Shown here one piece after another: positions 709 to 57,754 of a stretch of 64,000 bases of DNA. A model generated the notes under the pieces. It ran no database searches. It was given only the letters and a program-made list of their open reading frames with translations, and was not told where the DNA came from. Source of the stretch: an uncultured Candidatus Saccharibacteria bacterium. Its GTDB lineage: Bacteria > Patescibacteriota > Minisyncoccia > Minisyncoccales > Staskawiczbacteraceae. A program made the translations under genes and the position numbers. The stretch is taken from contig CAZAAH010000003.1 in the NCBI GenBank assembly GCA_964483475.1, forward strand, positions 142-64,141, in the 5' to 3' direction. The first letter of the stretch is position 1; each line of letters begins with the position of its first letter.

Positions 709-1069
709 ACAATTATAAATTTTTATATTGTAATTTGCTTAATGTTTCTTTTAATTGTATTTTTATTTCTGCATGACCCTTTCCTCCCTTCAAGAATTTT
801 TCTCGACGCTTAGCGTCGAGACGATCTAAATAGCATTCGTAATATATAAGCAATAAAGGCCTCCGAAATCTTGTTGCCCTAACCAACCCTTTATCGTGGT
901 AACAATTCGATTTTTAAGATTAGGGGTGTATCCAGTGTATAACTGTTTATCCTTCTCGCTGAAAAGAATATAAATGTAAAACATATCAGGTGTGCCCGCT
1001 TAGCGGGCCACTTCACTCATCTGATCTGTGGCGGGAACGCTCGGCGTTCCCTGGCCCAGCTCAGCTGGG

Positions 1070-1976: not shown

Positions 1977-2303
1977 TTACAAAGAAATATTTTCAATATC
2001 CTCTGACATTTCTTTTTTCTCCGGTCTCGGAGCTCTGCCACCCTCGGGCTCTTCAATTTTCAAGTTTACCCTGGCGTGGTTTTTCAATCCGATAATTCGG
2101 ACCAAGTTTCTTATTGCTTTGGCTGTTGATCCTTCCCTTCCAATGATTTGGCCCATATCAGCTGGGTTTACCGTCAATGAAAGCAAGACTCCCATTTCGT
2201 CAACTTTTCTCTCAACTTTGACGTCTTTTGGGTTGTCAACTAACTCCTTAACAACGTATTCAAGAAACTCTTTGTCATTATCTTTTGCCATTGTTCTACT
2301 CAA
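1977..2303 (-). CDS. khpA: KH-domain RNA-binding protein (YlqC/KhpA-like)
   Basis: KH motif IGREGSTAKAIRNLV. Conserved position between rpsP and trmD. Confidence 0.75.
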   Translation of the reverse strand: MSRTMAKDNDKEFLEYVVKELVDNPKDVKVERKVDEMGVLLSLTVNPADMGQIIGREGSTAKAIRNLVRIIGLKNHARVNLKIEEPEGGRAPRPEKKEMSEDIENISL

Positions 2304-2436
2304 GAACTTAAGAACATATGAACTGAAGAACTATCTGGTCCTTTCGTTCTTTCGTTTTTTGGTTCTTTCGTTAAACTAATTCTGCAGCTCGACCGTTCTG
2401 CAACTAAATTATAGTATACTTTTTTAAAACATTTTG

Positions 2437-2661
2437 TCAACTGTCAAAAAAAATTGGGGCGGCCAGATTTGCATCCAGCCACGCCCCTTGCCCCAAATCT
2501 GCTCTCGGTTTCCGTTTTTGGCTACCGGGTACCTCTCGCCCGGTACCGAGCGTACAAGACGGTCTCGAGTACCGCCTTTTCCCTCCCTTGAAGGAATTCG
2601 CCCGTTGGGTCCCTACGCAGACCCTAACCGCCAACACCCTCCGACGGAAACGACGTGCCAT
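2437..2661 (-). CDS. hypothetical very basic 74-aa protein (Arg/Lys-rich) in GC-rich island
   Basis: ATG preceded by a perfect SD (AAAAAGGAGAAAGC-ATG). Arg-richness may be partly a GC artefact, hence low confidence. Confidence 0.3.
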   Translation of the reverse strand: MARRFRRRVLAVRVCVGTQRANSFKGGKRRYSRPSCTLGTGREVPGSQKRKPRADLGQGAWLDANLAAPIFFDS

Positions 2662-2712
2662 GCTTTCTCCTTTTTGTTGCGAGAATTGGTGGTCATGGCG
2701 AACCGCCAATCT

Positions 2713-2835
2713 CTAACCTGAAGGCGCGCTCCGCGCGCACCCTTTATCCCTCAGAAACCACTGGACGAACATCAGCGCTACCGCCGCGGCGACGGTCAAT
2801 AGCGCACAAGCAATGGGTCTCCAAAGCCTTTGCAT
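2713..2835 (-). CDS. hypothetical 40-aa hydrophobic/TM peptide
   Basis: Own translation: MQRLWRPIACALLTVAAAVALMFVQWFLRDKGCARSAPSG. SD AAAGGAG 6 nt upstream. Not in the ORF track because it is under 60 aa. Confidence 0.45.
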   Translation of the reverse strand: MQRLWRPIACALLTVAAAVALMFVQWFLRDKGCARSAPSG

Positions 2836-2881
2836 CTTACTCCTTTCAATCCTGGCTTGGGTCAAGGAATTCACATCGAAT

Positions 2882-2997
2882 CCCTTCTTTCAAATCATTA
2901 TACTATGAATTTATATTTTTCAATATTGAGTTTCAGTAAAATTCTGTGAATTAATTCTGAAATCGGTAAAATCTCACGTAATGATCTGAAAGAAAGG
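2882..2997. repeat. island inverted repeat D (116 bp, ends CCCTTCTTTCA...TGAAAGAAAGG)
   Basis: Read directly. Long imperfect hairpin with the conserved terminal 11-mers shared with the repeats at 3853, 4651 and 5263. Confidence 0.6.
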
Positions 2998-3104
2998 CCT
3001 ATGTTCTTTTGACGAATCCTGATTTCGTCCTTTTGGGCCCATCGGTTCCGACACACATCGGAATATCAGAAGGTGTTTAGGCAAGAACACCGAACCAGAA
3101 AACG

Positions 3105-3365
3105 CTAACGGTTGAAGAGAACACAAAATGCAATCTGGGGAAGATCCCACTCTTCCACCATTGCCCGGACCTTGACGACATCTGGTGCCTTGAGAAAACT
3201 CAAGGCAATTTCGGCTCCCAACTCGCTGGGGACGCGCTCCGCCCCTTCCTCGAGCATGAAGTTCCTCGCGAGAAAGGGATCATCAGAATACTTGTGGAGC
3301 ACTCGACCCAGGTCCAGCAAATACTCCGCCGGAGAAACGCTTTCTACTGTAAAAAGTAAAAGCAT
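3105..3365 (-). CDS. hypothetical protein (86 aa) in island
   Basis: Start MLLLFTVESVSP... preceded by a G-rich SD (TGGGGGGACC-ATG). No recognisable domain. Confidence 0.35.
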   Translation of the reverse strand: MLLLFTVESVSPAEYLLDLGRVLHKYSDDPFLARNFMLEEGAERVPSELGAEIALSFLKAPDVVKVRAMVEEWDLPQIAFCVLFNR

Positions 3366-3535
3366 GGTCCCCCCAGTAAAAAAAGTGCTACCCCTAACTT
3401 CAGCCCACAACCTACAAGGTTATGAACTAGAGAAAAGGGAGGAACTTGAGCGTTGCTCAGGGTATCCTCCGTGTACTCTTTGAGAGAAATTTGAAATAGG
3501 TATTCTCCCTTAACCTATTAATCTCAAAAAAGAGG

Positions 3536-3808
3536 TTATTGACTTTGTTGCCTCTTCTTGATCTCTTCTAACCTTTGTCTTATTTTGATCTCTTCCAAGC
3601 CATTCAGACAATCCTCCTCGATGGTTTTCAGTAATTTTTCTCTTCTTTTATCCATATCGTCCCTACCAACCAATAGTAGCATTTCGAGAAAATTATATTT
3701 TTCGTTGTAACCCCGGTAATAACCAAGGTTCAGGCCGACGATGAATGCCACTAATGCAACCACTACCAGCAACAATCCAGTGTAGAAAGTGCTCACGGAA
3801 ATCTCCAT
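3536..3808 (-). CDS. hypothetical small membrane protein (N-terminal TM helix plus charged coiled-coil tail)
   Basis: Hydrophobic stretch LLLVVVALVAFIVGL followed by an EEIKIRQRLEEIKKRQ coiled coil. Confidence 0.45.
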   Translation of the reverse strand: MEISVSTFYTGLLLVVVALVAFIVGLNLGYYRGYNEKYNFLEMLLLVGRDDMDKRREKLLKTIEEDCLNGLEEIKIRQRLEEIKKRQQSQ

Positions 3809-3822
3809 TTGAGATCGAAAGT

Positions 3823-3899
3823 TCTGCGCCCAACCTGGCGGAAGCCAGATTTAAGACGCATACCCTTCTTTCAAACCATGAATTTAATTCATGAACTGA
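3823..3899. repeat. conserved 30-nt block plus island inverted repeat B (47 bp)
   Basis: TCTGCGCCCAACCTGGCGGAAGCCAGATTTAAGACGCATA abutting CCCTTCTTTCA...TGAAAGTAAGGGG. The 40-mer is near-identical to 5223-5262. Confidence 0.6.
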
Positions 3900-3980
3900 A
3901 AGTAAGGGGTGAAAGATTTCACATCCTGTGAAATCTTTCACCCATGTTTTGCTGCGTCATCGTGACGCAACCTCATTTTA

Positions 3981-4541
3981 TTACGGTAGCTCTGTGAGCC
4001 GAAGCTCTTTCTTGAGCTCCTCAGCAGTAGTATCATACCACTGCTGATTCCGCATAACCGCCCAACTGGTACCGTCCGTGGCACATTCAGTCGGTACGGT
4101 CGCGCAGCCGTATCCTAGTGCCTCATCCCGACTGCACGGAAAGTACAATTTGAACTTCCTTTCCCCATACGACTTTTGGGTCGCCTGGGAATAGGTGGGT
4201 ACCGGACGCCCATACCACCTAATCTCATGGTGGTACTCCACTCGCAGAGCCGTCCGTGGCCGGTTTAGATACTCGGCCAACGACCCACCGAACTTAATCG
4301 GCGGCTGGACTTCCAGAATCAGACGCTGAAGTTTTCTCAACGCCGTCCGGAGACCCTTCGGCCCCCGACAGGTCATGGACCCGCACATTGTGGGAAGACG
4401 GAGCGAAAAAACTTTTTTTCCATTCTCCTCCCCCACGAGGATCTCCGCTGGACGTTGCCAGCCCAGATCCGGCCGCTCCAACTGGGCGACCAGCCGTGCC
4501 TCGATCCGGTTACCACTTTCCGTCGTAAAAAAAGTACTCAT
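3981..4541 (-). CDS. hypothetical protein (186 aa), GC-rich, no recognised family
   Basis: Strong SD (GCAAAGGAGAAAC-ATG). Codon usage and GC differ from the flanking core genes. Confidence 0.55.
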   Translation of the reverse strand: MSTFFTTESGNRIEARLVAQLERPDLGWQRPAEILVGEENGKKVFSLRLPTMCGSMTCRGPKGLRTALRKLQRLILEVQPPIKFGGSLAEYLNRPRTALRVEYHHEIRWYGRPVPTYSQATQKSYGERKFKLYFPCSRDEALGYGCATVPTECATDGTSWAVMRNQQWYDTTAEELKKELRLTELP

Positions 4542-4650
4542 GGTTTCTCCTTTGCGAGAATGCGATCTACACCCTTATGTGCCATGACGCACATAAGCGG
4601 TTTTGGAAATGTTCAACCTCGTGCACAAGTAGATATTACGCTTGAGGCTT

Positions 4651-4742
4651 CCCTTCTTTCAAACCACCATCGTTCAGTTTTAACCTATCCCTTATTCGAG
4701 CGAATTAGAGATGTGTTTTCCTTGATGATTTGAAAGAAAGGG
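4651..4742. repeat. island inverted repeat C (92 bp)
   Basis: CCCTTCTTTCAAACC...TGATTTGAAAGAAAGG. Followed by the conserved junction GAGGAATTGGAACATCGCTGTTCC...TCCTCCGTGACTCTTCGG, which is also seen degenerate at 3425-3480. Confidence 0.6.
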
Positions 4743-4907
4743 AGGAATTGGAACATCGCTGTTCCGGTCTCCTCCGTGACTCTTCGGCTCGCTCAGGGCG
4801 AGCCCTTGACTTGCCGTTCCTGGCAAGCCCTACGAAATCCCGTCCTTTGGTAAGGCAGTCCGGGCATCTGCCCACACCTGTACTGACTGGCCCAGGGCGA
4901 GGCTTTT

Positions 4908-5192
4908 TCAACCGACCACAAACCCTCCTTCGCGAGGGGGGTTCGCGTGTGGCGCCGCCACACGATAAGCGCCTCCGCCCCGCCTTCCGAACGACCCAGA
5001 GTAAATCTCTGGGATAATACCTGCATCGACGAGTGCCTCGTCTGCTGTTTCGAATGTTTTTTCACCTTTGAAGCGAAACCGGAACGGACCGGGCTCTGAT
5101 GGGAAATGCCTCTTCCCGTCAGAATCGAGCCACTGATAACCGGCATGCTTCCCAGCGAGAAAAACGACGGACCCCGTCAGCAATGTAAACAT
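4908..5192 (-). CDS. hypothetical small secreted protein (94 aa, N-terminal signal-like MFTLLTGSVVFLAGKHAG)
   Basis: Start chosen at the internal ATG with SD GAAAGGGGAATAAG-ATG. The track ORF 4908..5234 begins upstream inside the repeat. Confidence 0.5.
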   Translation of the reverse strand: MFTLLTGSVVFLAGKHAGYQWLDSDGKRHFPSEPGPFRFRFKGEKTFETADEALVDAGIIPEIYSGSFGRRGGGAYRVAAPHANPPREGGFVVG

Positions 5193-5222
5193 CTTATTCC
5201 CCTTTCGAGAGAATAGTGAAGT

Positions 5223-5337
5223 CTCTGCGCCCAACCTGGCGAAAGCCAGATTTAAGACGCATACCCTTCTTTCAGCTAGCCAACCGTGGCAAGTAGCCAG
5301 GCTCCCAGATAGGACTTACTGACGAGCTGAAAGAAAG
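5223..5337. repeat. conserved 40-nt block plus island inverted repeat A (75 bp)
   Basis: TCTGCGCCCAACCTGGCGAAAGCCAGATTTAAGACGCATA followed by CCCTTCTTTCAGCTAGCC...GAGCTGAAAGAAAGG. Confidence 0.6.
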
Positions 5338-5456
5338 GTAGGAAACCAAGATTCAATCATCCTTTTGGTCGTGTTTCCTTAGGTTTTTCAATGTTCATTT
5401 TACGCCTTAATTATAGCACTATCAAGCAAGTGTGTCAAGTGTTTAGGTAATCAATC

Positions 5457-5483
5457 AAAAAACGCCGATAATCGGCGTTTTTT
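5457..5483 (-). terminator. rho-independent terminator downstream of rpsP
   Basis: AAAAAACGCCGATAATCGGCGTTTTTT hairpin plus T-tract immediately 3' of the rpsP stop. Confidence 0.65.
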
Positions 5484-5495
5484 GGTACATTGTTT

Positions 5496-5927
5496 CTATT
5501 TTTTGGGTTCCTCTTTTGGCTCTTCTTTGGGCTCTTCGTTTTTTGGAGTTTCTGGCGAAGGCGCTGGAGTTTCCGTTACAGTTTCGGACTTAGTTTCAGG
5601 AACTGGTGGGGCCGAGGTAGGAACCGGAGCGGCCGCAGCCGCGGCTGCGGCCGCTTTTTTACTCTTTTTTGCAACCGGGATTTTCTTGCCCTCAATAATT
5701 TTTTCTGAAATCAACAAATTGTGAACTGTGGCTGACGGTTGGGCTCCTTTAGACATCCAATGCAAAATCCTTTCCTTTTTTAAAGATTTCCTCTTGGTGA
5801 GTGGATCAAGGTATCCCAAAATTTCAACCGCCCTTCCCCCTTTGGAAGACCTCCGCTTATCAATGACCACCACCCTAAAAAATGGCTGGTTCTTTTTCCC
5901 TTGTCTTGTTAAACGAATCGTTAGCAT
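5496..5927 (-). CDS. rpsP: 30S ribosomal protein S16 with Ala/Pro/Glu/Lys-rich C-terminal extension
   Basis: MLTIRLTRQGKKNQPFFRVVVIDKR. The C-terminus has an Ala9 run and PKEE repeats. Confidence 0.9.
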   Translation of the reverse strand: MLTIRLTRQGKKNQPFFRVVVIDKRRSSKGGRAVEILGYLDPLTKRKSLKKERILHWMSKGAQPSATVHNLLISEKIIEGKKIPVAKKSKKAAAAAAAAAPVPTSAPPVPETKSETVTETPAPSPETPKNEEPKEEPKEEPKK

Positions 5928-5946
5928 AGTTTAAAAATTATTCTAA

Positions 5947-6639
5947 TTAATTCCATGATTTCTTAATAAGACCTTCTTTGGCTGCTTCCTCCTCTGCCTC
6001 CTGTTTTGAATAGCCTTCGCCCTCGGCCACCAAGTCCTGCCCTAAAAATACTCCCACTTTGAACTTCTTTTGATGGTCAGGCCCCCACTCTTCAACAACC
6101 TTGTACATGGGAGTCACCCCCACCTTTTCCTGGGCCTGCTCTTGAAAGTAAGACTTTGCGTCTTTGTATAATTTGTTTTCTATGATGTCGGGCAGTTTTT
6201 TCAACAGGTATTTGGCGATGAGGGCGTCAACGGTTTCATACCCTTGGTCGAGGTACAGTGCCCCGATGAAAGCTTCAAAGGTGTTGGCCAAAATGTACTG
6301 GCGCGCCTTGCCCAACTCTTTCATTTCGCCCCGTGATAGGAGCAAAAAATCATTAAAGCCCATTTCCTCGGCCATGGAGGTAAGCATTTTGGCATTGACC
6401 AGGGCTGCCCTCCAGTTGGTCAGCTCTCCCTCGGCTTTGTCTGGATATGTTTTGTAAAGGTATTCGGTGATGGACAATTCCAAAACTGCATCTCCCAAAA
6501 ATTCCAATCGTTCATTATGCTCCATGCCGGATTTTGGGTTTTCATTGAGGTATGATCGATGGACAAATGCCTGAGTTAAAAGCTCTTTACTTTTAAATTT
6601 CAATCCCAACTTTTTTTCTAATAAGGAAAAATCCTTCAT
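5947..6639 (-). CDS. rnc: ribonuclease III
   Basis: RNase III signature ERLEFLGDAVL plus a C-terminal dsRBD. Confidence 0.9.
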   Translation of the reverse strand: MKDFSLLEKKLGLKFKSKELLTQAFVHRSYLNENPKSGMEHNERLEFLGDAVLELSITEYLYKTYPDKAEGELTNWRAALVNAKMLTSMAEEMGFNDFLLLSRGEMKELGKARQYILANTFEAFIGALYLDQGYETVDALIAKYLLKKLPDIIENKLYKDAKSYFQEQAQEKVGVTPMYKVVEEWGPDHQKKFKVGVFLGQDLVAEGEGYSKQEAEEEAAKEGLIKKSWN

Positions 6640-6704
6640 TCTGTTACGAAAGAACAGAAAAACTTAAGAACGAAAGAACCATGTCATGGTAGTTCTTTAG
6701 TCCT

Positions 6705-7142
6705 TTAGTTCTTTGGTTCTTCAGTTTTTGGTTCTAATTGCTTATACACTGTCCCCAAAACGCCATTTACAAATTTACCAGAACTCTGGCCAGAAAATGA
6801 CTTTGCCAGTTCAATGGCCTCGTTGATGGCAACCTTTGGCGGAACTTCTTCTTTATTGCTGTACAAAAGTTCAAAAAGCCCTATTCGTAAAACATTTCTG
6901 TCAACCAGCGGGATTTGGGCAAGCGGCCACTCGGGAGCTGCCTTTTCAATAATGTTGTCAATTTCTTTTTGGTGTTTTGCCACCCCGTCAGCCAGCTCTT
7001 TTACAAATGTTAAATCTTCCAAGCCAGGGCCGAAATCCTTGATATTCCTATCAATAATTTGGTCTAAATTTTTTTGACCATAAAAATCCCATTCATACAA
7101 ACTTTGCATTACTATAGATCGTGATAGGTGCCGACTAGCCAT
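6705..7142 (-). CDS. nusB: transcription antitermination factor NusB
   Basis: NusB-like helical protein; recognised by overall sequence resemblance, no single diagnostic motif. Confidence 0.8.
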
Positions 7143-7178
7143 GTTAATGAATTATGAATTAAGAATTACGAATTATGA

Positions 7179-7463
7179 TTATTTTTTTGAAAGTTCTTCC
7201 ATACTCATTGGCTTTTCTGTTTTTTGCCCTTTTTCTTGCTTTGCCATTTCTTTTTCTCTCAACTTTTTCTCTTTTTTAGTGAGCTTGCCCAAAACATTAA
7301 TAACCTCTCTCCCCTTATAATATCCGCAGTGCTGGCACACGGTATGAGGCCTAACCGGCTTTTTGCATTTTTGGCAGGTCGTCAAAGCAGCGGGCCTGAT
7401 GTAAATATGCATCCTCCGTTGCCCTACGCTTGACCTGGTGTGTTTATGTCTTGGAACAGCCAT
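7179..7463 (-). CDS. rpmF: 50S ribosomal protein L32 with Lys/Glu-rich C-terminal extension
   Basis: MAVPRHKHTRSSVGQRRMH...C..C...HTVCQHCGYYKGREV. Confidence 0.8.
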   Translation of the reverse strand: MAVPRHKHTRSSVGQRRMHIYIRPAALTTCQKCKKPVRPHTVCQHCGYYKGREVINVLGKLTKKEKKLREKEMAKQEKGQKTEKPMSMEELSKK

Positions 7464-7516
7464 GCTTTTGGAATTATGATTTAAGAATTATGAATTAAGA
7501 TTATGAAGATATCCTA

Positions 7517-8173
7517 TCAAATAAATTCAGTTTTGGCAAGAGCTTTGACCGGGAAAAAAGACTTGCGGTGAATCTTGCAGGGGCCAAATGCATTGAGGTT
7601 TTTTAGGTGCAGTTTTGTGCCGTAGCCCTTGTGAAAATTAAAGCCGTACTCTGGATATTTTTTGTGAAGCTTTTGCATTACTCTGTCTCTTGTGACTTTG
7701 GCAATAATTCCGGCGGCTGTGCAAGAAAAAACCTTTTCATCAGCTGCAATAATCGGTTTTTGTGGAATTTTGGCCTTAATTTTAAAATTTCCGTCTAAAA
7801 TTAGAAATTCTGGCACAGAATTTAAATTTTTAACGGCTTTTTTCATCGCCAACTTCGTGGCTTCTAAAATATTTATTGTGTCTATAATTTTTTCTGAAAC
7901 CATTCCAATACCCCAATCAATTTGTGGATGATTTGTTAGTTTATTATAAAAAAAATCCCTTTGCTTTTGAGATAATTTTTTACTGTCTTTTATCCCAAAA
8001 AACATTTTAATATTAGCGCTAATATTAAAATGTTTTTTGGTTTCGGTTTTAATCATAACAGCTGCGGCCACCACTGGGCCGGCCAGTGGCCCCCTTCCAG
8101 CCTCATCTAGCCCAACAACAAAATTAAATCCTTGCTTCCACAATTTTTTTTCTTCATTGAGATTTGGGTACAT
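7517..8173 (-). CDS. rnhB: ribonuclease HII
   Basis: GLDEAGRGPLAGPVVAAAV motif. Confidence 0.9.
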   Translation of the reverse strand: MYPNLNEEKKLWKQGFNFVVGLDEAGRGPLAGPVVAAAVMIKTETKKHFNISANIKMFFGIKDSKKLSQKQRDFFYNKLTNHPQIDWGIGMVSEKIIDTINILEATKLAMKKAVKNLNSVPEFLILDGNFKIKAKIPQKPIIAADEKVFSCTAAGIIAKVTRDRVMQKLHKKYPEYGFNFHKGYGTKLHLKNLNAFGPCKIHRKSFFPVKALAKTEFI

Positions 8174-8224
8174 TAAAGGAATTTTATCATATAAAAAAAG
8201 CTTCGCAAAACTGCAAAGCCTAAC

Positions 8225-8527
8225 TTAAGGTGACCTTTGTGACTCCAGATCATCAACTTCTGACTGAGTTTCCAGTAATTTATACGTTAACAACATACAT
8301 GTAGCAAGCACTCCTGGATCATGGCCCTTATTTTCATAGAAGTCACAAAGATTCTTAATAAAAGCCGCTACACATAGATTTTTTTTAAATAAATGTGTTA
8401 ACATTCTTTGCAAAAAATCACCTTCAGGATTTTCCAATTCATGTTGAATAGAAAAAAGAATCTCTTCGTTGACTATTGGCAAAGGCATTTGAGACTCCTT
8501 GAATGACAAAGTCCTACACATCGCCAT
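8225..8527 (-). CDS. hypothetical protein
   Basis: ORF only, no recognisable motif. Confidence 0.35.
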   Translation of the reverse strand: MAMCRTLSFKESQMPLPIVNEEILFSIQHELENPEGDFLQRMLTHLFKKNLCVAAFIKNLCDFYENKGHDPGVLATCMLLTYKLLETQSEVDDLESQRSP

Positions 8528-8575
8528 TTAATCATATAAATATTTCAATGTAAATACTTTATATATTTTCTAAAA

Positions 8576-8638
8576 CCAGAGCACTAATATATTAGTGCTC
8601 GGCCGAGCACTCAACTTGTTGAGTGCTCTGGTTTTCAT
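8576..8638. terminator. tandem double hairpin (CCAGAGCAC-loop-GTGCTCGG / CCGAGCAC-loop-GTGCTCTGG) flanked by A/T runs
   Basis: Read directly. Likely terminator for the upstream minus-strand gene. Confidence 0.45.
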
Positions 8639-9120
8639 AATTTTTCCAAGATCTTTAGTTCCAATACATCGTGTTCGGTATCATAAATTGCGAATGTTGG
8701 TTTGAATCTTTGGCCGGCAATCTCGCCCGGATTTATCATTCGACAATTTCCTACTTTATCTTCCCATGGCCGATGAGTATGTCCGTAAAAAACCAAGTCG
8801 TATTTGCCGGATTCCGCCATTTCTCTGGCAACATCTGGATAATGGTTAAAAAAAATCTTTCTTGCCCTGAGCCCGGTCGAAGGGTTGCCTCCCAACTCTA
8901 ACTCCATGGTTTCTGGAACGTTTTCCAAATCATAATCCCCATTTCCTCTTACAAATTTAACCTCACCTTTAAAATTTTTTGTGATTTCATCCGTCGTTTC
9001 TTGACTGCAAATATCTCCGCAATGCAAAAGAAACCCAATTTTTTCTTTATTGAGCCAATCTATAGCTTTGTTTGCGTTTTTTATATTGTCGTGAGTGTCA
9101 GAAATAATCGCAAATTTCAT
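8635..9120 (-). CDS. YfcE/MJ0936-family metallophosphoesterase
   Basis: Motifs DTHDN, GDICSQ, GNGDYD, GHTHRP. Confidence 0.75.
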   Translation of the reverse strand: MKFAIISDTHDNIKNANKAIDWLNKEKIGFLLHCGDICSQETTDEITKNFKGEVKFVRGNGDYDLENVPETMELELGGNPSTGLRARKIFFNHYPDVAREMAESGKYDLVFYGHTHRPWEDKVGNCRMINPGEIAGQRFKPTFAIYDTEHDVLELKILEKL

Positions 9121-9125
9121 TTTAA

Positions 9126-9701
9126 CTAATGAGAGTAAGTGCCCATCAACTGGCCACTGCCGATAATATGACCTTCCATTGCGCTATCAACTTCTTTTCT
9201 GTTTGGGGTTTTATCAAATTGCAAGGTATGATCCAGCGCAAAAACTTTAAAATAGTATCGATGGGTTCCCGAGGGAGGACAAGGGCCACTATATTCCAAT
9301 TTTCCAAAGTCGTTTTCTCCCAATAAAGCGCTTCTTTGCTCAAATATTAAGGTTCCTTTTGGAATGTTGTCTTCCCCAATTTCTCTGGTATCTGGAGCAA
9401 TATTAAAAAGGATCCAATGGGTAAAAGTTCCAGAAGGGGCATCTGGGTCGTCAACAATCAAAGCCAAACTTTTAGCCTTTTTAGGAACTCCATCAATCAA
9501 AATGGATGGGTTGATATTTTGGCCGTCGCAAGTATATTTTTCGGGAATGTTTTGGCCTTCTAAAAAATTTAAACTGCTTACTTTTACTTTTATCATATTT
9601 TTATTATTGTAAAGAGGCTGTTTTAAATGTAAAAGGTAAAAAGTTAAAAATACAGCTAAAACTACAAAAATTATTAAAAATATTAACGATTTCTTCATCA
9701 T
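9126..9701 (-). CDS. PEBP/YbhB-YbcL family protein, secreted or membrane-anchored
   Basis: DPDAPSGTFTHW...GPCPPSGTHRYYFKVFALD. N-terminal hydrophobic anchor. Confidence 0.75.
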   Translation of the reverse strand: MMKKSLIFLIIFVVLAVFLTFYLLHLKQPLYNNKNMIKVKVSSLNFLEGQNIPEKYTCDGQNINPSILIDGVPKKAKSLALIVDDPDAPSGTFTHWILFNIAPDTREIGEDNIPKGTLIFEQRSALLGENDFGKLEYSGPCPPSGTHRYYFKVFALDHTLQFDKTPNRKEVDSAMEGHIIGSGQLMGTYSH

Positions 9702-14598: not shown

Positions 14599-14847
14599 TT
14601 ATTTGAACGCCAATAAATCTTTAAGCTCCTTTACTTCCGCTTCCAATCTTTCAATCCTCACCTTGTGGTCAGCTAATATTAATTTTTCTATCTTATCAAA
14701 ACGCTTATCCACCAAATCAAAACGTTTATTCATTTCTGACTTGGTGGCCATTCTTTCGGTCACATCATTAAATCCGTTCTGGACCATAACCGCCAAGTCA
14801 TCAATGGTAACATCTTTTTTGCTCATAGGTTCATTATACTGTTTCAA
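14599..14847 (-). CDS. small coiled-coil protein (paralog of 33461..33700)
   Basis: Shared pattern I(T)IDxLAxMVQxGF...K..R...E.KL..I with the 79-aa ORF at 33461..33700. Confidence 0.5.
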   Translation of the reverse strand: MKQYNEPMSKKDVTIDDLAVMVQNGFNDVTERMATKSEMNKRFDLVDKRFDKIEKLILADHKVRIERLEAEVKELKDLLAFK

Positions 14848-41247: not shown

Positions 41248-44200
41248 TCAGTTACCGCTGACTTTGACATCAAACAAGCCAGCCTTTTTCAAGTCGGCGG
41301 CCAAAATCAAAGTCGTTAATTGGGTTGAGGAAACGTAATTTGTTTTGTAGAGCAGATTATTGAAGTAAATGACCGACCGGCTGGTAAAGTTGGAGCCATT
41401 AACCGTCAAAAGCGTATCAGGGCTGCCAATGGGAACTTGTGGTGGAGATATATTTGATATTATAGGCGGAGGCAGCTTAACGTTTTTCATAGCACAATAT
41501 GAAATTCTGTCCGCACTAACAACAATTGAAGAGCATCCGCTGATTGTATTTTGCCAACCCAAAGGGACGATTTCACTCACTGAATAAGTTCCAGGAATGA
41601 CGTTTTGAGTATTGGTACCTGAACCGTTTTGGGTAGTTATAGAAAAATCGTTGTAGCCAGTTCCGGTGGCCTTGAAGTTAAAAGTGTAATCTCCACCAAC
41701 AGCTATTTTATTAACTACAATTGTACCAGTTTTAACGGTCGTCACAGAACAATTTGAAGTTTTGTTTGAAGAAACAGTAACCGATGAGCATGTGTCGCTC
41801 GTCTTTTGCCAGCCAGAAGGGACAATTTCACTTGCCGAATATGTTCCAGGAAGGACACTTTGCGTATTTGAGCCCGATCCATTTTTAGTAGTAATAGAAA
41901 AATCGTTGTAGCCAGTTCCGGTGGCTTTGAAGTTAAAAGTGTAGTCTCCGCCGACGGATATTTGGGTAACAGTGATGTTGCCAGTTTTTTGTGACTGTGG
42001 TGGCGGTGGTGGCGGACTTGATCCTCCTCCCCCTCCGCCCCCTCCTCCTCCACCACCGCCGCAGTTAGACGGCGACCTAAATAACCAACCGCTATTGCCA
42101 GATACATTTGAAGAGTTGCACCCCGCATACCATGCGGCCCCTCCCGAAGCCGCCGAATCTTTCAGGGAAAGAAAATCAGATGAAACGGTTCCCGAAGATT
42201 TTGATAGCGTGGCGGCCGTACTGCTGGAAGAAGAATTAATAGTGATAATATTGCCCGATGTCCCGATGGCCGTGAAAGCCCCGGTAAAGGTTTGGGTGCT
42301 AGAGCTGGTAAAGGTCACGGTTTTGGGATTGTTGATGGTAAAGTTGCTAAAGGTGTTGCTCCCCTGGATGATGATGGCCCCAGACCCCCCGCCAGTAATT
42401 GATAGGTCATTATATGTTTTACCGCCCCCGCTAAATGTTTTGCTCGATGAAGACGTGTCGGTGATTTGAATGGTTGAAGTACCGGCGTTAAAAGTTCCCG
42501 AATTGGAAAAAATGGTGCCGGTACCAGAAAGCGTGAGGGTCCTGGAGTTAGCATCTAGGGTTCCAGCGGTGATGGTTAGATTGCTATTGACGGTGGTGTT
42601 GGCTGATAAGGTATAGGTTTCGCTGGCGTTGTTGAGGGTCAGGTTATTGTAGGTAACATTGGCAATGGTGGTGTTTCCCGATCCGTTGTCGCCCGTGTAA
42701 GAGACAGTACCCGTTGAGGCGGTAAGGGTTCCTTTTGAATTAATAACAAGAGGGGTGCCAGTAGTTCCCGATAAGGTTATTGTATAGCTTGATCCGCTGA
42801 ACGTCTGGGTGTTAACGCCCGATGAGGGTCCTACGGTTAATACATTGGTTACTGTCGTATTACCTCCAAGGGTATAGGTTCTGCCACCGGTTTGAGTGGT
42901 GGCGTTTCCAGCCTGTAAGTTATAATAGGTAGTCCCTAACATAGTAACCGTAGCACCGTCACCCGTGTAATTTACCGTTGAAGTGGATGAAGTAAATGTT
43001 CCATTGTTTATGAAAGGGGTGCCTACACCCGATAACGTGAGTGTTTGTGAACCCGCCGAGAAGTTACCATTGGTAATAGTGAGACTCGTGCCAATGGTAG
43101 TTGCATCCTGCAATGTCCAGCCTCCCCCGACACCATTGAAAGTCAGGTTATTGAATGAGCTACCTCCTGTGGTGATAGTTTTTCCTGTGGTTGTGGCGTT
43201 GAAAGTAACGGTGTTTCCCCCCGCGGTAAAGGTTCCCGAGTTAGACCAGTTTGACGAGGCAGTAATATTATAATTAGAACTGGAAACATCCAGTGTGGTG
43301 CCAGTTCCGATGGTTACGTTTCCCGTTATTGCAATGTTTGTGCCCAGGGTCATAACCGCTGTTCCGCTTAGCGTCAGATTGCCGCCGATGGTTGTCAAAA
43401 CATTTCCCGAAGTTGAAGCAGAGCTGGACATGGTAAAGTCGTTGGTGGTGGTGATACTGGTCATGGTCTTGGCTCCGCTCCCGCTCAAAGTCAAATTAGA
43501 ATAGGTATGAAGAGTGCCGCCGTTTGGATCTTTTACGGTCAGCGCTCCGTTGGCCGTGTAGTTGACGGTGTTGGTGGCCGTGGAAGCTGAAAAAGTTCCG
43601 GCTCCCGAGAAAGGAGTGGTTGAACCAAGGCTCAATGTTGAACCGTTGCCTTGGGCCCAGTTACCAGTAAGAGTCAGAGTGCCGGTCACGGTGACCGTGC
43701 CACCAGTATAGTTGTTGGTGGTGGTTCCGCTGGAAATTGCCAGGGCTCCCCCAAAGGTGATGCCGCCAGTCCCAGCCCCAGCTAAATTTCCAACAAGGGT
43801 GTTTGAGCCGTTGTTTCCGAGGTTGGCAAGATTGGAACTTGATTGGGTAAGACCAGTGCCTATGGAAACCGCGGGATTTTGGCCCGACATATCAAAGGTG
43901 CCGCCGGAGTTTACGGTTACCGCTCCGGTAAATGTTTTGGTTCCTGTTGCCGAAGTAGCCGTGTTAATAGTCCCTGAAATAGAGGTAGTGCCCGTCGTCG
44001 TGAAAGCAAATCCCGCCATGCTTAAGGTGCCGGCCGTAATTACAAGATTATTACTCACCGTTGTGGCGTCTTGAGGGGTATAAGTTCCGCTGCTTCCGTT
44101 AATAGTTAGATTATAAAAAGATGAACCGCCCGAGGTTATTTTAGCGCTAGCAGAAGTTGAGGCAAGGGTGACCGTGGTGGTTGCTGCGGTAAATGTTCCT

Positions 44201-45513
44201 GCGTTTTTGTAGTTTCCGCCAACGCTAATAGCTGAAGATCCTCCGGGAGCATAGGTTTGGCTGGCGGCAATATACAGATTTTTTCCCGATGCCAGCGTTG
44301 TCGTGGTGCTGTTGCTGGCAGAATAAATAGAGGTGATGCCGCTGTCGGCGTTGTTGTCTGACGTATCCATGTTTGCTCCCGTAAATGATCCCCCGTTGTC
44401 GCTCCTGACCACCAAATCATTCTGGTAAATATCAACACTAGTCATATTGGATCCCGTGCCCGTGGTTACCGTAGCCCCAACCTCCGTGTTGCCCTGAAGG
44501 TAAATGGTTAAGACATCTCCGGCGTTAATGGTTAAACCGCTGATGCTGTAGGTTCCACCAGCGCCGGTTGTAGTGCTTCCGACAGCCGCTGCCCCGTTAA
44601 TAGAAACCTTTACGGTTTTTCCAGAACCCATGGTGGTGACGCCCTCGTCAGTGTAAGCAGTTCCAGAAACAGAAACGGTTGTTGATGAAGCTTTAAACGT
44701 TGCTATGGCTCCCTCCCAACTGTTAGTGGGACCACCACTGTCAGTAACGGTAGCGCCCGTTGAATACGTGCCCGTGGCAGAAACGATTCTGTCGAGAAAG
44801 GCCGCAAAAATAGATGTAGAATAACTGTTTTCAATGGTAAAGCTATTAGTGGGAGAGCTAAACGTATCGGTGGTAGTTCCCAATCCTCCAATAAGCAATT
44901 CATTGGCCTGGGTGGTGGCGGCGGTAGTTCCTGTTGAAGGAGAGGTGCTATCACCAGAATTGGTTGCCGTCTTATCAAGGGAAGAAGAGGTAGCAACGCC
45001 GCTGTACTCGGCAACGATGACACTGAGGCCGGCATCGGCATCGGTTGTAAAGTTTCCGGTGCTTGATTGGGAAGCGGCGTTCTCCTTATAAAAAATTGAA
45101 AGTCTCCTGATGCTCATAACTCCGGTGCCGCCACCATTGATAGTAGTGGCTTGAGTCCAACCGGTAGGCGCCGTAATATTGTCGGTGCCAGCTCCCGAAG
45201 CATCGTCCTCGGCACTAGCTACCGCTATAAGAATGTTTCCTGCAGTGGTAGATGACGTCCATGTTACCGAAACAGTCGCATTTGCCACTGATGACTGGTT
45301 CTTTGCTGTTTGAACCAGCGAAATCGCGCCATGGGCAACACGAGGAGGAGGGACAAACAAAAACAAGCTGGCAAAAACAGCTATGATAAGGAAAAAAGAA
45401 AGCAGCGCCCTCAAAGAAGAATACTTTCTGAAGGAACTTTTCCTGTTTTGAACCTTTACCGAGCAACTTTCCGATTCTATAAATCTAATTTTTATGACTT
45501 GTTTTTTTCGCAT
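41248..45513 (-). CDS. giant (1421 aa) Thr/Ser/Gly-rich surface protein, beta-helix-like repeats, Gly13-Pro7 linker, two tandem about-85-aa domains and a C-terminal IPT/TIG-like domain
   Basis: N-terminal anchor, long T/S/G/N-rich repeats (TLSGTGT.. pattern), GGGGGGGGGGGGGSSPPPPPPQ. C-terminal domain similar to the N-terminal domain of the neighbouring 560-aa protein. Confidence 0.65.
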   Translation of the reverse strand: MRKKQVIKIRFIESESCSVKVQNRKSSFRKYSSLRALLSFFLIIAVFASLFLFVPPPRVAHGAISLVQTAKNQSSVANATVSVTWTSSTTAGNILIAVASAEDDASGAGTDNITAPTGWTQATTINGGGTGVMSIRRLSIFYKENAASQSSTGNFTTDADAGLSVIVAEYSGVATSSSLDKTATNSGDSTSPSTGTTAATTQANELLIGGLGTTTDTFSSPTNSFTIENSYSTSIFAAFLDRIVSATGTYSTGATVTDSGGPTNSWEGAIATFKASSTTVSVSGTAYTDEGVTTMGSGKTVKVSINGAAAVGSTTTGAGGTYSISGLTINAGDVLTIYLQGNTEVGATVTTGTGSNMTSVDIYQNDLVVRSDNGGSFTGANMDTSDNNADSGITSIYSASNSTTTTLASGKNLYIAASQTYAPGGSSAISVGGNYKNAGTFTAATTTVTLASTSASAKITSGGSSFYNLTINGSSGTYTPQDATTVSNNLVITAGTLSMAGFAFTTTGTTSISGTINTATSATGTKTFTGAVTVNSGGTFDMSGQNPAVSIGTGLTQSSSNLANLGNNGSNTLVGNLAGAGTGGITFGGALAISSGTTTNNYTGGTVTVTGTLTLTGNWAQGNGSTLSLGSTTPFSGAGTFSASTATNTVNYTANGALTVKDPNGGTLHTYSNLTLSGSGAKTMTSITTTNDFTMSSSASTSGNVLTTIGGNLTLSGTAVMTLGTNIAITGNVTIGTGTTLDVSSSNYNITASSNWSNSGTFTAGGNTVTFNATTTGKTITTGGSSFNNLTFNGVGGGWTLQDATTIGTSLTITNGNFSAGSQTLTLSGVGTPFINNGTFTSSTSTVNYTGDGATVTMLGTTYYNLQAGNATTQTGGRTYTLGGNTTVTNVLTVGPSSGVNTQTFSGSSYTITLSGTTGTPLVINSKGTLTASTGTVSYTGDNGSGNTTIANVTYNNLTLNNASETYTLSANTTVNSNLTITAGTLDANSRTLTLSGTGTIFSNSGTFNAGTSTIQITDTSSSSKTFSGGGKTYNDLSITGGGSGAIIIQGSNTFSNFTINNPKTVTFTSSSTQTFTGAFTAIGTSGNIITINSSSSSTAATLSKSSGTVSSDFLSLKDSAASGGAAWYAGCNSSNVSGNSGWLFRSPSNCGGGGGGGGGGGGGSSPPPPPPQSQKTGNITVTQISVGGDYTFNFKATGTGYNDFSITTKNGSGSNTQSVLPGTYSASEIVPSGWQKTSDTCSSVTVSSNKTSNCSVTTVKTGTIVVNKIAVGGDYTFNFKATGTGYNDFSITTQNGSGTNTQNVIPGTYSVSEIVPLGWQNTISGCSSIVVSADRISYCAMKNVKLPPPIISNISPPQVPIGSPDTLLTVNGSNFTSRSVIYFNNLLYKTNYVSSTQLTTLILAADLKKAGLFDVKVSGN
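41540..42000. repeat. tandem duplication of about 230 bp inside the giant gene (two copies near-identical at the DNA level)
   Basis: GTAGCCAGTTCCGGTGGC[C/T]TTGAAGTTAAAAGTGTA[A/G]TCTCC... appears twice, about 240 bp apart. Confidence 0.6.
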
Positions 45514-56233: not shown

Positions 56234-57754
56234 CTAAATCTCAATAAATTTTTGTATTGCTTTTTTCATTTTTCCTTCAATCTCTTCGGCGATGTCTCGT
56301 TTTTCTTTCAAGTCTTCCAATAATTCTCCGTGCAAGTCTTTAACATACTCTAAAAGGTCGGCTTCTACTTTTTGGATTTGTTCCGGTTGGAATTTGTCAA
56401 AGTATCCGTTCAAAGCGGCGTACAAAACCAAAACCTGCTCCTCAAAAGGCATGGGGACCAGGTCGGTTTGCTTTAAGACTTCCGAAATAATCCTGCCCTT
56501 GTGGATTTTTTCCCTGGTTTCCTGGTCAACGTCGGAAGCAAACTGGACAAAGGTTTGCAATTCCCTGAACTGGGCCAGCTGAAGCCTCAACTTGCCGGCC
56601 ACCTTTTTCATGGCTTTGGTTTGGGCCGAAGACCCCACTCGTGAAACTGACAAACCAATGTTCAAAGCCGGCCTCACCCCCTGGTAAAATAAATCAGACT
56701 CAAGGTAAATCTGGCCGTCGGTAATGGAAATGACATTGGTGGGGATGTAGGCCGTCACGTCGCCAAGCTGAGTTTCAATGATGGGGATGGCGGTCAACGA
56801 GCCTCCGCCGTTTTCTTTTGAAAGCTTTGCCGCACGCTCAAGTAGCCTAGAATGCAAATAAAAAACATCGCCCGGATAGGCTTCCCGGCCCGGCGGCCTC
56901 CTCAAAAGCAGTGAAATCTGACGGTAGGCCCAGGCGTGCTTTGATAAGTCGTCATAAATAATCAAGGCGTCTTGCCCTTTGTCCCTAAAATATTCTCCAA
57001 TGGCGCATCCAGCAAACGGGGCCAAGTACCAAAAGGCGGCCGGGCTTGATGCTGAGGCCGAAACCACGATGGTATAGTCAAGCGCGCCGTTATTTTTTAA
57101 CGTTTCAACTATTTTAGCCACCTTTGATTCCTTTTGGCCGATAGCAACATAAATACAAACTGTTTTTTTGCCTGATTCCCTTCCCTGGTTGATAATCATG
57201 TCCAAAACGATGGCTGTTTTTCCCGTCTGGCGATCCCCAATAATCAATTCCCTCTGTCCCCTGCCAATAGGGATCATGGCATCAATGGCTTTGATACCCG
57301 TGTGCAAGGGCTGGTTGACCGATTCCCGAGCCAAAACATCGGGCGCGTTGTTTTCCAAAAAGTTAAATTTCTTTTTATCTTTTTCAGAAAAAATCGGCCC
57401 CTTGCCATCCAGAATATTGCCCAGGGAATCAACCACCCTTCCTAATAACGGCTCTCCCACTCGAATCGAAAGAATTTGTTTGGTCCTTTTTACCGTCTGC
57501 CCAGATTTAATATGCTGGCTATCCCCCAAAACCAAGGCTCCCACCACATCTTCTTCCAAGTTCAACACCACCGCCCGAATTTTTTCTTTGTCAGTCTCAA
57601 CAACCAAAACTTCTTGGCTCTGGCAATGTGAAAGCCCCGATATTTTCAAGATTCCATCTCCCACTTCCAACACCTTCCCAATTTCCTCCCATTCGGGACT
57701 CTCTTTATAGCCTTCAATCTGTTGTTTTAATTTTTCAATTATTTCTTGGCTCAT
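56234..57754 (-). CDS. atpA: ATP synthase alpha subunit
   Basis: GDRQTGKT P-loop. Confidence 0.95.

Follow-up and report, generated by a model that had tools for sequence, protein, structure and literature searches.

Structured repeats and variable small-gene arrays between rpsP and khpA in Staskawiczbacteria- and Nealsonbacteria-like genomes

The DNA analysed here, a stretch of 64,000 nucleotides from contig CAZAAH010000003.1 of an uncultured Candidatus Saccharibacteria bacterium (assembly GCA_964483475.1) and referred to below as the window, carries on its minus strand, between the genes rpsP and khpA, an island (window 2440-5440) of six co-oriented small open reading frames (ORFs) and five long hairpins. 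This island is a self-contained accessory operon, with the stop codon of rpsP on its upstream side and the promoter of khpA on its downstream side. Its hairpins, termed elements in this text, appear to represent a new structured family which is without a match in Rfam and lineage-wide, and which is confined to variable arrays at the rpsP-khpA hotspot and a few other places. Sequence comparison indicates that the elements delimit exchangeable cassettes, the breakpoints of homology lying in the element arms, and that the array, though laid out like an integron, is not one; the cassette reading given in an initial annotation of this DNA was thus right in layout and wrong in family. Our preferred reading, held tentatively and with somewhat less than even confidence, is that the elements may act in the sense RNA as double-stranded punctuation, through RNase III-type processing or insulation, and may at the same time provide the homology by which cassettes are exchanged.

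The island and its transcription unit

On the minus strand the gene order is rnc (5947-6639; encoding RNase III), rpsP (5496-5927), the island, khpA (1977-2291) and trmD (1221-1916), with 3636 nt between the start of rpsP and that of khpA. The trmD product is at most 80% identical to that of any of 185,579 species representatives, and its top matches are metagenome-assembled genomes of Candidatus Staskawiczbacteria and Nealsonbacteria, which places the organism among the bacteria of Parcubacteria type in the Candidate Phyla Radiation. The G+C-rich nature of the DNA between the rpsP terminator and khpA, first remarked in the initial annotation, is borne out by a G+C content (GC) of 0.49 in the rpsP-khpA gap as compared to 0.38 in the flanks, by a profile in 300-nt windows which tops out at 0.56-0.60 within the island, and by GC values of 0.52-0.59 for the island ORFs, the transmembrane ORF (0.40) excepted, as against 0.36-0.47 for ten core genes. 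The raised GC may derive from a foreign gene pool or from GC-biased conversion at a recombination hotspot.

The small ORFs had been described as promoterless, a description which is contradicted by the array promoter at 5438 to 5410 (5410-5438, minus strand), where TTGACA, a 17-nt spacer and TATAAT agree with the sigma-70 consensus at 12 of 12 positions and are accompanied by an extended -10 TG. Equivalent consensus promoters are found at the array heads of L105, L109, L127, L128, L167 and L048 (L numbers denote loci from other genomes). At the far end of the island, terminator scanning identified a canonical intrinsic terminator (2446-2487, minus strand; GGGGCG...CGCCCC followed by T8), and khpA possesses a promoter of its own (2413-2440, minus strand; TTGACA-16-TATACT, 11 of 12 consensus positions) at the downstream edge of the insertion. 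The same scan placed the rpsP hairpin terminator, a symmetric structure flanked by an A-run and a T-run and assigned to neither strand, at 5454-5486. The array's own promoter and terminator, together with the separate promoter of khpA, argue that the island is an independent transcription unit.

The array promoter is followed by a leader in which a conserved motif, ATTGAAAA, precedes the hairpin H0-1 (5340-5379, minus strand), which in turn abuts the first element, E1. This leader is conserved in L003, L004, L012, L026 and L105, and the RNA extending from it to the first ORF (5190-5405) folds into three neighbouring hairpins, H0-P1-H2, with a z-score of -4.5. The first element is located in the leader, approximately 30-75 nt past the -10 box and upstream of any ORF, and the same arrangement of promoter, leader and first element is repeated at other loci. 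Read in the sense direction, each unit consists of a hairpin H0, whose sequence varies and which adjoins the element, the L arm, (C)CYTTCTTTCA, and inner box of that element, the element interior, the inner box and R arm, a 5' untranslated region (UTR) of 25-110 nt which at times contains an extra hairpin, H2, a ribosome-binding site (RBS), and the ORF.

The element family

The elements in the window end in the motifs CCYTTCTTTCA (L arm) and TGAAAGAAGGG (R arm). The family was characterised from 173 distinct copies on more than 100 contigs of Staskawiczbacteria- and Nealsonbacteria-like genomes, and its common feature is a 19-bp stem in which CCYUUCUUUCA and AAUCAUUA pair with UAGUGAUU and UGAAAGAAGGG, the proportion of ungapped pairing being 0.75-1.00 at each of the stem positions 1-19. 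The UUCA/UGAA portion of the stem is invariant and the stem sequence as a whole is near-invariant across genera. The interior measures from 5 to approximately 90 nt and falls into a few conserved subtypes which are common to several species, so that the initial description of the interiors as non-homologous is too simple. These subtypes comprise A (approximately 108 nt, forming a rod of approximately 50 bp), B (approximately 75 nt), C (approximately 85-130 nt) and D (approximately 43 nt, a plain hairpin).

Subtype C consists of a covarying 19-bp stem, P1, and an inner hairpin, P2, with 99.8% of alignment cells paired and no bulge. Double changes were observed in eight pairs, a level which was attained by none of 500 shuffles and in no slid register, while the unpaired motifs UCACUGA and UUUCAGAAUGA are invariant. 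The rods of approximately 50 bp in subtype A are built from unrelated sequences and reach a z-score of approximately -9 in single-sequence folds; RNAalifold recovers the outer stem only for this subtype, the MAFFT alignment leaving the interiors unaligned. The order of the subtypes within arrays is not arbitrary, as A is first in 14 of 15 cases and C last in 32 of 43, and loci with a single element mostly hold a subtype C copy.

The elements are co-oriented with their ORFs and their stems are polarised, with 397 G.T/T.G as compared to 83 A.C/C.A wobbles on the sense strand, which identifies the sense strand as the folding strand. In each of the four window elements tested the sense strand also folds better as DNA than the antisense strand (for E2, -12.4 versus -7.0 kcal/mol). 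The wobble bias and the better sense fold indicate that it is the sense strand which is under selection, whether in the form of RNA or of lagging-strand template DNA, and GC skew assigns the sense sequence to the lagging-strand template. The preceding hairpin H0 is in register with the element: in 137 of the 173 copies (79%) its end falls between -3 and +1 nt relative to the L arm. The tract CUUUCUUUCA which follows H0 is broken by a C, and among the five H0 units of the window only that at 3943-3907 passes a simple terminator scan.

All of the window copies lie on the minus strand. E1 (5264-5338; 75 nt, subtype B; free energy (dG) -36.4, z -5.3) is 86% identical to L003 4894-4968 and is followed by the 5'-UTR hairpin module H2 (5224-5263), which was identified by folding and forms part of a 51-nt repeat. 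The hairpin H0-2 (4741-4775) ends on the first base of E2 (4651-4741; 91 nt, z -7.1). H0-3 (3907-3943), a terminator-like hairpin with a perfect 17-bp stem followed by CTTACTTTCA, leads into E3 (3863-3907; 45 nt), a simple hairpin of subtype D, beyond which a second copy of the H2 hairpin (3823-3862) belongs to the same repeat family. H0-4 (3440-3471) precedes E4 (3391-3439), a degenerate member of subtype D (CCCTTTTCTCTAG...CTGAAGTTAGGGG; dG -23.9, z -5.3), and H0-5 (2995-3040) overlaps by 3 nt with the L arm of E5 (2882-2997; 116 nt, subtype C), which is 75-76% identical to L003 5416-5515 and L009 2014-2130. The fold z-scores of the five elements against shuffled sequences range from -5.2 to -7.1. 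The four hairpins and the additional degenerate copy initially reported therefore all exist, five in total, with the correction that the fifth is located at 3391-3439, the interval originally given for it (3425-3480) covering mostly H0-4.

No exact copy of the end motifs was found outside the island in the 64 kb. When one mismatch was permitted, 20 matches to the end motif were obtained in the 64 kb where 10 were expected, a number reached in none of 100 shuffles; two loose element matches, at 56600 and 23495, both lie inside genes and were rejected as chance. In a search of the window against Rfam 15 only three tRNAs passed the gathering threshold, with no family for the elements, and at E<=10 the best match in 2200-5600 scored far under threshold.

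Cassette turnover and comparison with known systems

The prediction that the island is an accessory and variable block is supported by 50 related loci containing both genes, in which the distance from the rpsP start to the khpA start extends from 398 to 5829 nt, and by the empty sites of relatives, where the khpA promoter directly follows the rpsP stop codon. In most of the related loci the GC of the gap exceeds that of the flanks. The arm motifs recur in these gaps, and include lineage variants with compensatory changes (CCCTTGTTTCA / TGAAACAAGGG; CCCTTTTTTCA / TGAAAAAAGGG; CCATCTTCCAG / CTGAAAGATGG), and a pairing-based finder returned 0.34 elements per kb in gaps as compared to 0.036 per kb in flanks. 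A metagenome scan with subtype C yielded 85 contigs, of which approximately half have rpsP or khpA nearby; the other half, approximately, have no rpsP, khpA or trmD within the fetched stretch, and on the longer contigs of this kind the elements adjoin clpB, follow rplJ-rplL or lie in other GC-rich islands. Several arrays away from rpsP-khpA are likewise headed by a consensus promoter. Arrays are numerous on groundwater contigs from the Hainich wells (ERZ12926xx), and arrays or variants of them are also present in CP179888.1, in OY969803.1 and on contigs of 738, 694 and 662 kb. DNA similarity of arrays between species is nearly limited to the elements and to a few short blocks beside rpsP and khpA, element identity amounting to 93% over 98 nt between L001 and L044 and to 92% over 100 nt between L007 and L043. 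The array ORFs of different loci are nearly all unrelated, with just eight small homology groups linking loci when the 339 ORFs of 35 aa or more, taken from either strand, are compared, and approximately 8 of 114 non-redundant array ORFs have a Pfam match (Csx3, HTH_3, DksA/TraR zinc finger, M50 and reprolysin-like peptidases, HD). Homologous cassettes, where found, are fast-evolving and coding-like, with conserved Cys motifs and some excess of changes at third positions.

Turnover of whole arrays is seen in L048 and L049, close relatives with flanks 91-95% identical, of which the former has a 1.9-kb array that is absent from the latter. The two ends of the L048 array are marked by a 12-bp direct repeat, CTTGACAAATTT (7659-7680 and 9359-9380; L049 9405-9440), by which the khpA promoter is either split or duplicated: its upstream copy constitutes the -35 box of the array promoter and its downstream copy that of the khpA promoter. 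The repeat is either an insertion signature or the scar of a microhomology deletion. At the level of single cassettes, an 84-aa ORF (MRKWFES...) is located behind an element, X, beside clpB in L105, and within another island in L095 and L158, where it stands between elements Y and X', the latter being 96% identical to X. L095 and L120 share element X together with a 380/403-aa ORF at 90% identity, the homology starting exactly at the L arm, and the cassettes upstream of this shared block differ. In L043 and in L026 two successive units have H0 and the L arm in common and then diverge, which makes a hybrid of one L043 element, the stem of which is mismatched. The 51-nt repeat of the window (3823-3873 and 5224-5274, 98% identical) starts at the R arm and extends into the 5' UTRs of two unrelated ORFs. 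The joints thus occur in either arm and at no single nucleotide, a pattern more in line with recombination between repeats than with a site-specific mechanism that uses a single crossover point. That the repeats fold, recur in relatives and bound exchangeable cassettes is in agreement with the initial annotation.

That annotation had also proposed an integron cassette array, of which the layout was upheld and the attC family was not. As in integrons, there is an array of co-oriented cassettes, with one site each and with varying content, and cassettes are common to different arrays. An attC site is defined by the core triplet AAC/GTT in RYYYAAC/GTTRRRY, by a central spacer of 5-6 unpaired nt, by two to three extrahelical bases on one arm and by a recombinogenic bottom strand, antisense to the cassette ORFs (PMC5027507). 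RYYYAAC/GTTRRRY is present in 0 of the 173 elements (terminal 16 nt, even with 8-nt flanks), the stem is continuous over 19 bp where attC has its spacer and extrahelical bases, and it is the sense strand that is favoured whereas the bottom strand is structured in attC. Integron cassette arrays, chromosomal arrays and clusters of attC sites lacking integron-integrases (CALINs) included, are among the closest known systems, and element lengths (34-147 nt overall) compare with 57-141 nt for attC sites. A promoter is present upstream, while no IntI was seen among the large genes examined and no attI was seen; furthermore, each cassette has its own 3' hairpin and a 5' UTR of 25-110 nt, breakpoints fall in both arms, and a lineage can contain several array loci, each with its own consensus promoter. 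A survey of the literature on integrons and cassettes in Patescibacteria, or the Candidate Phyla Radiation (CPR), and on structured RNA motifs in Parcubacteria found nothing relevant.

It is possible, but in our view unlikely, that the elements are folded single-stranded DNA (ssDNA) recombination sites, analogous to attC, which are used by a putative recombinase encoded elsewhere for the capture and excision of cassettes. Such a role would suit co-oriented small orphan ORFs which share a single upstream promoter, keep to one position in the chromosome and differ in content between relatives, and the dimensions of attC (PMC5027507) are matched by a conserved stem of approximately 19 bp whose variable terminal structure measures 5-90 nt. 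The placing of subtype A almost always first and of subtype C mostly last is reminiscent of attI versus attC, cassette homology ends within the arms, the stem sequence is conserved beyond mere pairing, and the strand that folds better is, judged by GC skew, the template of the lagging strand. These likenesses are set against the lack of attC core motifs, of an unpaired central spacer and of extrahelical bases, against breakpoints on both the L-arm and R-arm sides rather than at one crossover point, and against the edges of the L048 array, which are formed by the 12-bp promoter -35 repeat and not by elements. The interiors, moreover, contain conserved covarying substructures, a feature met with more typically in functional RNA. 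Among the large genes examined in the window or near arrays, neither a tyrosine nor a serine recombinase was encountered: ten large ORFs of the window and seven large genes near arrays included one rve-type transposase only (L105/L114). The possibility that the cassettes are TG...CA-ended transposons moved by this transposase was rejected, as its inverted repeats are different and direct-repeat duplications are lacking at the cassettes. With comparably low confidence, the arrays might constitute a CPR gene-capture system with a new class of folded recombination site, unlike attC in sequence and in detailed structure, which would be served by a housekeeping recombinase or by one encoded elsewhere and would amount to an independent instance of the integron principle. 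At hotspots like rpsP-khpA, such a system would insert and shuffle cassettes and express them from a consensus promoter of its own.

An alternative origin, as selfish miniature inverted repeats of the Correia/REPIN type which lodge in the spacers of variable islands and whose effects on RNA are by-products, is considered improbable. The elements do share with Correia, REP, BIME, REPIN, ERIC and BOX repeats a unit size of 40-150 nt, terminal inverted repeats (here 11-19 nt), long and short variants and co-transcription with neighbouring genes. Their length classes differ by internal segments, as do full-length and deleted Correia elements (PMC2649163), they are located at transcribed intergenic positions, and copies from separate species (92-93%) or separate loci (96-97%) can be almost identical. 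Correia hairpins are also bound by RNase III, which either cleaves or protects them (PMC2649163). The notion of a dispersed miniature inverted-repeat transposable element or REPIN nevertheless fits poorly, because the copies are confined to arrays, with none in the remaining approximately 60 kb and approximately 60 other intergenic regions of the window, keep strictly to the orientation of the genes, follow an order of subtypes and show no target-site duplication in their flanks on inspection. In addition, they are in register with H0 and the 5' UTR, the wobble bias indicates selection on the fold of one strand, and no transposase with matching ends was found, the ends of the rve transposase in L114 being unrelated.

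Each of the six minus-strand ORFs initially listed for the island (74, 40, 86, 90, 186 and 94 aa) is present. None has a significant match in Pfam or PHROG, and the suggestion that they might be toxins, immunity proteins or bacteriocins gained no support. The first ORF of the array (94 aa; 4908-5192, minus strand, as are the others) has a hydrophobic N-terminus and the RBS AAGGGG and belongs to no Pfam family. The 90-aa ORF (3536-3808) encodes one transmembrane helix and a coiled coil and has a weak spanin-like PHROG match (E 0.002); its reported lack of a Shine-Dalgarno sequence disappears if the start is the GTG at 3796, which has GGAG 7 nt upstream and gives a product of 86 aa. Of the remainder, the 86-aa ORF (3105-3365) falls in no Pfam family, the 40-aa ORF (2713-2835; RBS AAGGAG) encodes a membrane peptide, and the Arg-rich 74-aa ORF (2437-2661), although preceded by an RBS, is doubtful as a gene because its profile of GC over the three codon positions (GC1/2/3) is flat, with a GC2 of 0.60. 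The 186-aa ORF (3981-4541) represents a very rare but real protein family, for which a word-indexed search of 5.8 billion proteins returned the self-match only, and an exhaustive HMMER search of 1.8 billion representatives returned two distant homologues only, both on short AT-rich contigs without elements (L176 119-754, L177 952-1533). GC3 is 0.63 in the array copy as compared to 0.37-0.40 in the two homologues; GC enrichment thus seems to be tied to residence in an array, as would agree either with GC-biased gene conversion at a recombination hotspot or with a donor pool rich in G+C. The AlphaFold model of the 186-aa protein has a predicted local distance difference test (pLDDT) score of 40.

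Further repeated modules were noted in the arrays of relatives. A hairpin with a CCAUGG loop (ttcttgNNNccatggcaagaa) is located just 5' of the RBS in many cassette 5' UTRs (L009 ~2130-2180, L012 ~2340-2400, L028 ~4090 and ~7290, L044 ~8740, L109 ~7290, L127 ~830, and also L128, L131 and L162). The ORF which follows it in L109, L127 and L128 starts with MA(T/A)(T/A)..RS.WTGT(R/K)G and that of L009 with MATSAT, and this unit has the appearance of a cassette that recurs together with an RNA motif of its own. Arrays of the Nealsonbacteria type contain a second non-coding repeat module, ATAGCAAGCGCAGAATTGTTC...GTGAATAATTCTG, in the 5' UTRs of successive cassettes (L048 7776-7860 and 8676-8745; L036 5101-5177, 6622-6759 and 8206-8262; L050 3085-3204; L057 8583-8683), with identities of up to 93-95% between species. 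Homologues of an 82-aa coiled-coil protein (..DKRFDKIE.LILADHK.RIERLE..) encoded at 14599-14847 (minus strand) of the window occur directly after rpsP, at the start of the array, in L028 (2639-2884) and L037 (6081-6293).

Possible function and significance

According to the reading of the elements as RNA punctuation, the consensus sigma-70 promoter would drive a structured leader followed by five or six small, GC-rich orphan ORFs and the terminator, and the element stems in the polycistronic transcript would be probable RNase III-type processing or insulation sites, as in the early operon of phage T7. Cleavage at the elements would release separate messages from the polycistronic RNA, each of which would be shielded by the 3' hairpin H0 of its own cassette, with added protection from the 5' hairpin H2 in at least some cassettes. 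As shared repeats, the elements would moreover allow duplication, loss and exchange of cassettes by ordinary recombination and thereby an integron-like turnover without an integrase; they can supply the homology for this since the same sequences of 40-130 nt recur between every gene and in related genomes. This reading accounts for the sense polarity, the element in the leader, the flanking H0 and H2 hairpins, the rod-like stems and the scattered joints. The stems, at 19 bp and at approximately 50 bp in subtype A, are in keeping with the length of approximately 20 bp or longer of RNase III sites and are located in the leader and between cistrons of the sense transcript.

The early operon of phage T7 comprises a strong host promoter, RNase III sites in the leader and between small accessory genes (R0.3-R1.3), and a terminator. 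It is probably the best functional parallel to the arrays, which resemble it in their strong promoter, in their leader, intergenic and pre-terminator hairpins, in stems of at least approximately two helical turns and in the related sequences of their sites. The arrays differ from it in that they are chromosomal and lineage-wide, with a stem sequence that spans genera and with several interior subtypes containing conserved helices. The same textbook comparison could be taken to mean that the island is a decayed prophage or integrated mobile element, with the repeats as RNA-processing signals of its early operon, an explanation we regard as very unlikely. The cargo of the arrays, including Csx3, helix-turn-helix (HTH) and DksA/TraR-type proteins, would be in keeping with it, as would the element-headed GC-rich island of L131, which lies beside a weak terminase-like gene and helicases. 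It is opposed by searches of 2.9 million IMG/VR contigs with three patterns, which gave chance matches only, by the lack of any element match in GenBank phages, by the absence of structural, replication or integrase genes from the window array, and by the different cargo found at the same hotspot in dozens of species. In viral collections no matches were obtained for the 48-nt UTR repeat and the subtype-C pattern, and ten viral matches to an 18-mer of the R arm were dismissed as chance, as all were without the partner arm. The L131 island itself (2096-9300; 7 kb, GC 0.50-0.61 as compared to approximately 0.42 in its flanks) has one element at its head, codes for a P-loop protein, a zinc-ribbon protein and a DEAD/DEAH-box helicase, adjoins the terminase-like gene and an HTH gene on the opposite strand, and may be a prophage or another integrated element.

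Several observations weigh against the RNA-punctuation reading. RNase III normally reads shape and not sequence, and the near-invariant stem sequence and the invariant unpaired motifs of subtype C, both of which this reading leaves unexplained, point to a putative sequence-specific partner. In combination, the hairpin H0 and the U-rich L arm resemble an intrinsic terminator, which, if efficient, would end transcription before the stem could form. G.T wobbles stabilise ssDNA as well as RNA and the sense sequence belongs, going by GC skew, to the template of the lagging strand, so that a role at the DNA level is possible. Finally, the element finder is heuristic, and most of the loci derive from metagenome-assembled genomes.

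A further explanation, which we consider rather improbable, is that the elements are regulatory modules in which H0 and the L arm form a terminator or attenuator, while the stem or the subtype-C loops serve as promoters or as binding sites for a dedicated protein (an antiterminator, a translational repressor or an L7Ae-like protein), and thereby co-regulate all the cassettes. H0 abuts the U-rich tract in 79% of units, with one window unit passing the terminator scan, the unpaired motifs of subtype C are invariant, and the R arm includes TTGAAA. However, there is no conserved -10 box at the proper spacing past TTGAAA, and the R arm was on this account rejected as a sigma-70 promoter; a stem located downstream is unable to prevent termination at H0; and neither a candidate binding protein nor a single-subunit RNA polymerase was found in the window. 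The 3' half of the R arm has what we take to be a resemblance to the initiation regions of SP6/T3 promoters. A promoter for a phage-type RNA polymerase was nonetheless set aside as a weak lead only, given that the inner box varies by subtype, leaving no common 17-23-nt promoter, and that no such polymerase was found.

Other features of the window were recorded beside the island. RpsP has a low-complexity C-terminal extension of approximately 60 aa, rich in Ala, Pro, Glu and Lys (5496-5700, minus strand), the length of which differs among relatives and explains part of the variation in rpsP-khpA distance. The 5' UTR of khpA (2300-2412; rpsP-khpA spacers of L002-L078) contains a hairpin, TAGTAGC...AAAGGTCG(A/G)GCTACT, which has the form TAGTTGCAGAACGGTCGAGCTGCAGAA in the window, is kept in nearly all relatives and could regulate the khpA-trmD operon as a cis-acting leader; four 8-nt tandem units (TTTCGTTC-like) follow it at 2334-2372. 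Between tRNA-Thr (636-708) and tRNA-Tyr (1066-1153), two short overlapping ORFs (713-984, minus strand) start with MFYIYILFSEKDKQLYTGYT..., which is similar to a GIY-YIG nuclease motif, and the pair looks like a small nuclease gene, frameshifted or split, wedged between tRNA genes. An ORF of 1421 aa in a GC-rich stretch (41248-45513, minus strand; GC 0.50-0.51), without a Pfam family, may encode a large CPR surface protein or a protein of another kind.

CPR (Patescibacteria) genomes measure approximately 0.5-1 Mb and are thought to be short of room for accessory DNA. The arrays described here indicate that a CPR clade keeps a strongly promoted slot in a core ribosomal neighbourhood for the rapid turnover of small orphan genes, punctuated by a structured repeat. 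If the elements serve in RNA processing or insulation, they would amount to a new family of structured RNAs and to a natural standard by which foreign genes can be expressed in plug-and-play fashion; if they are recombination sites, they would define a system which is organised like an integron without belonging to that family. In either case, unexplored small proteins are concentrated in the arrays, more than 90% of them without a Pfam domain, and some of the rare annotated cargo (Csx3, HD, DksA/TraR, HTH and metallopeptidases) hints at phage-host or symbiont-host conflict. The elements themselves offer a simple sequence handle by which such arrays can be detected in metagenomes.

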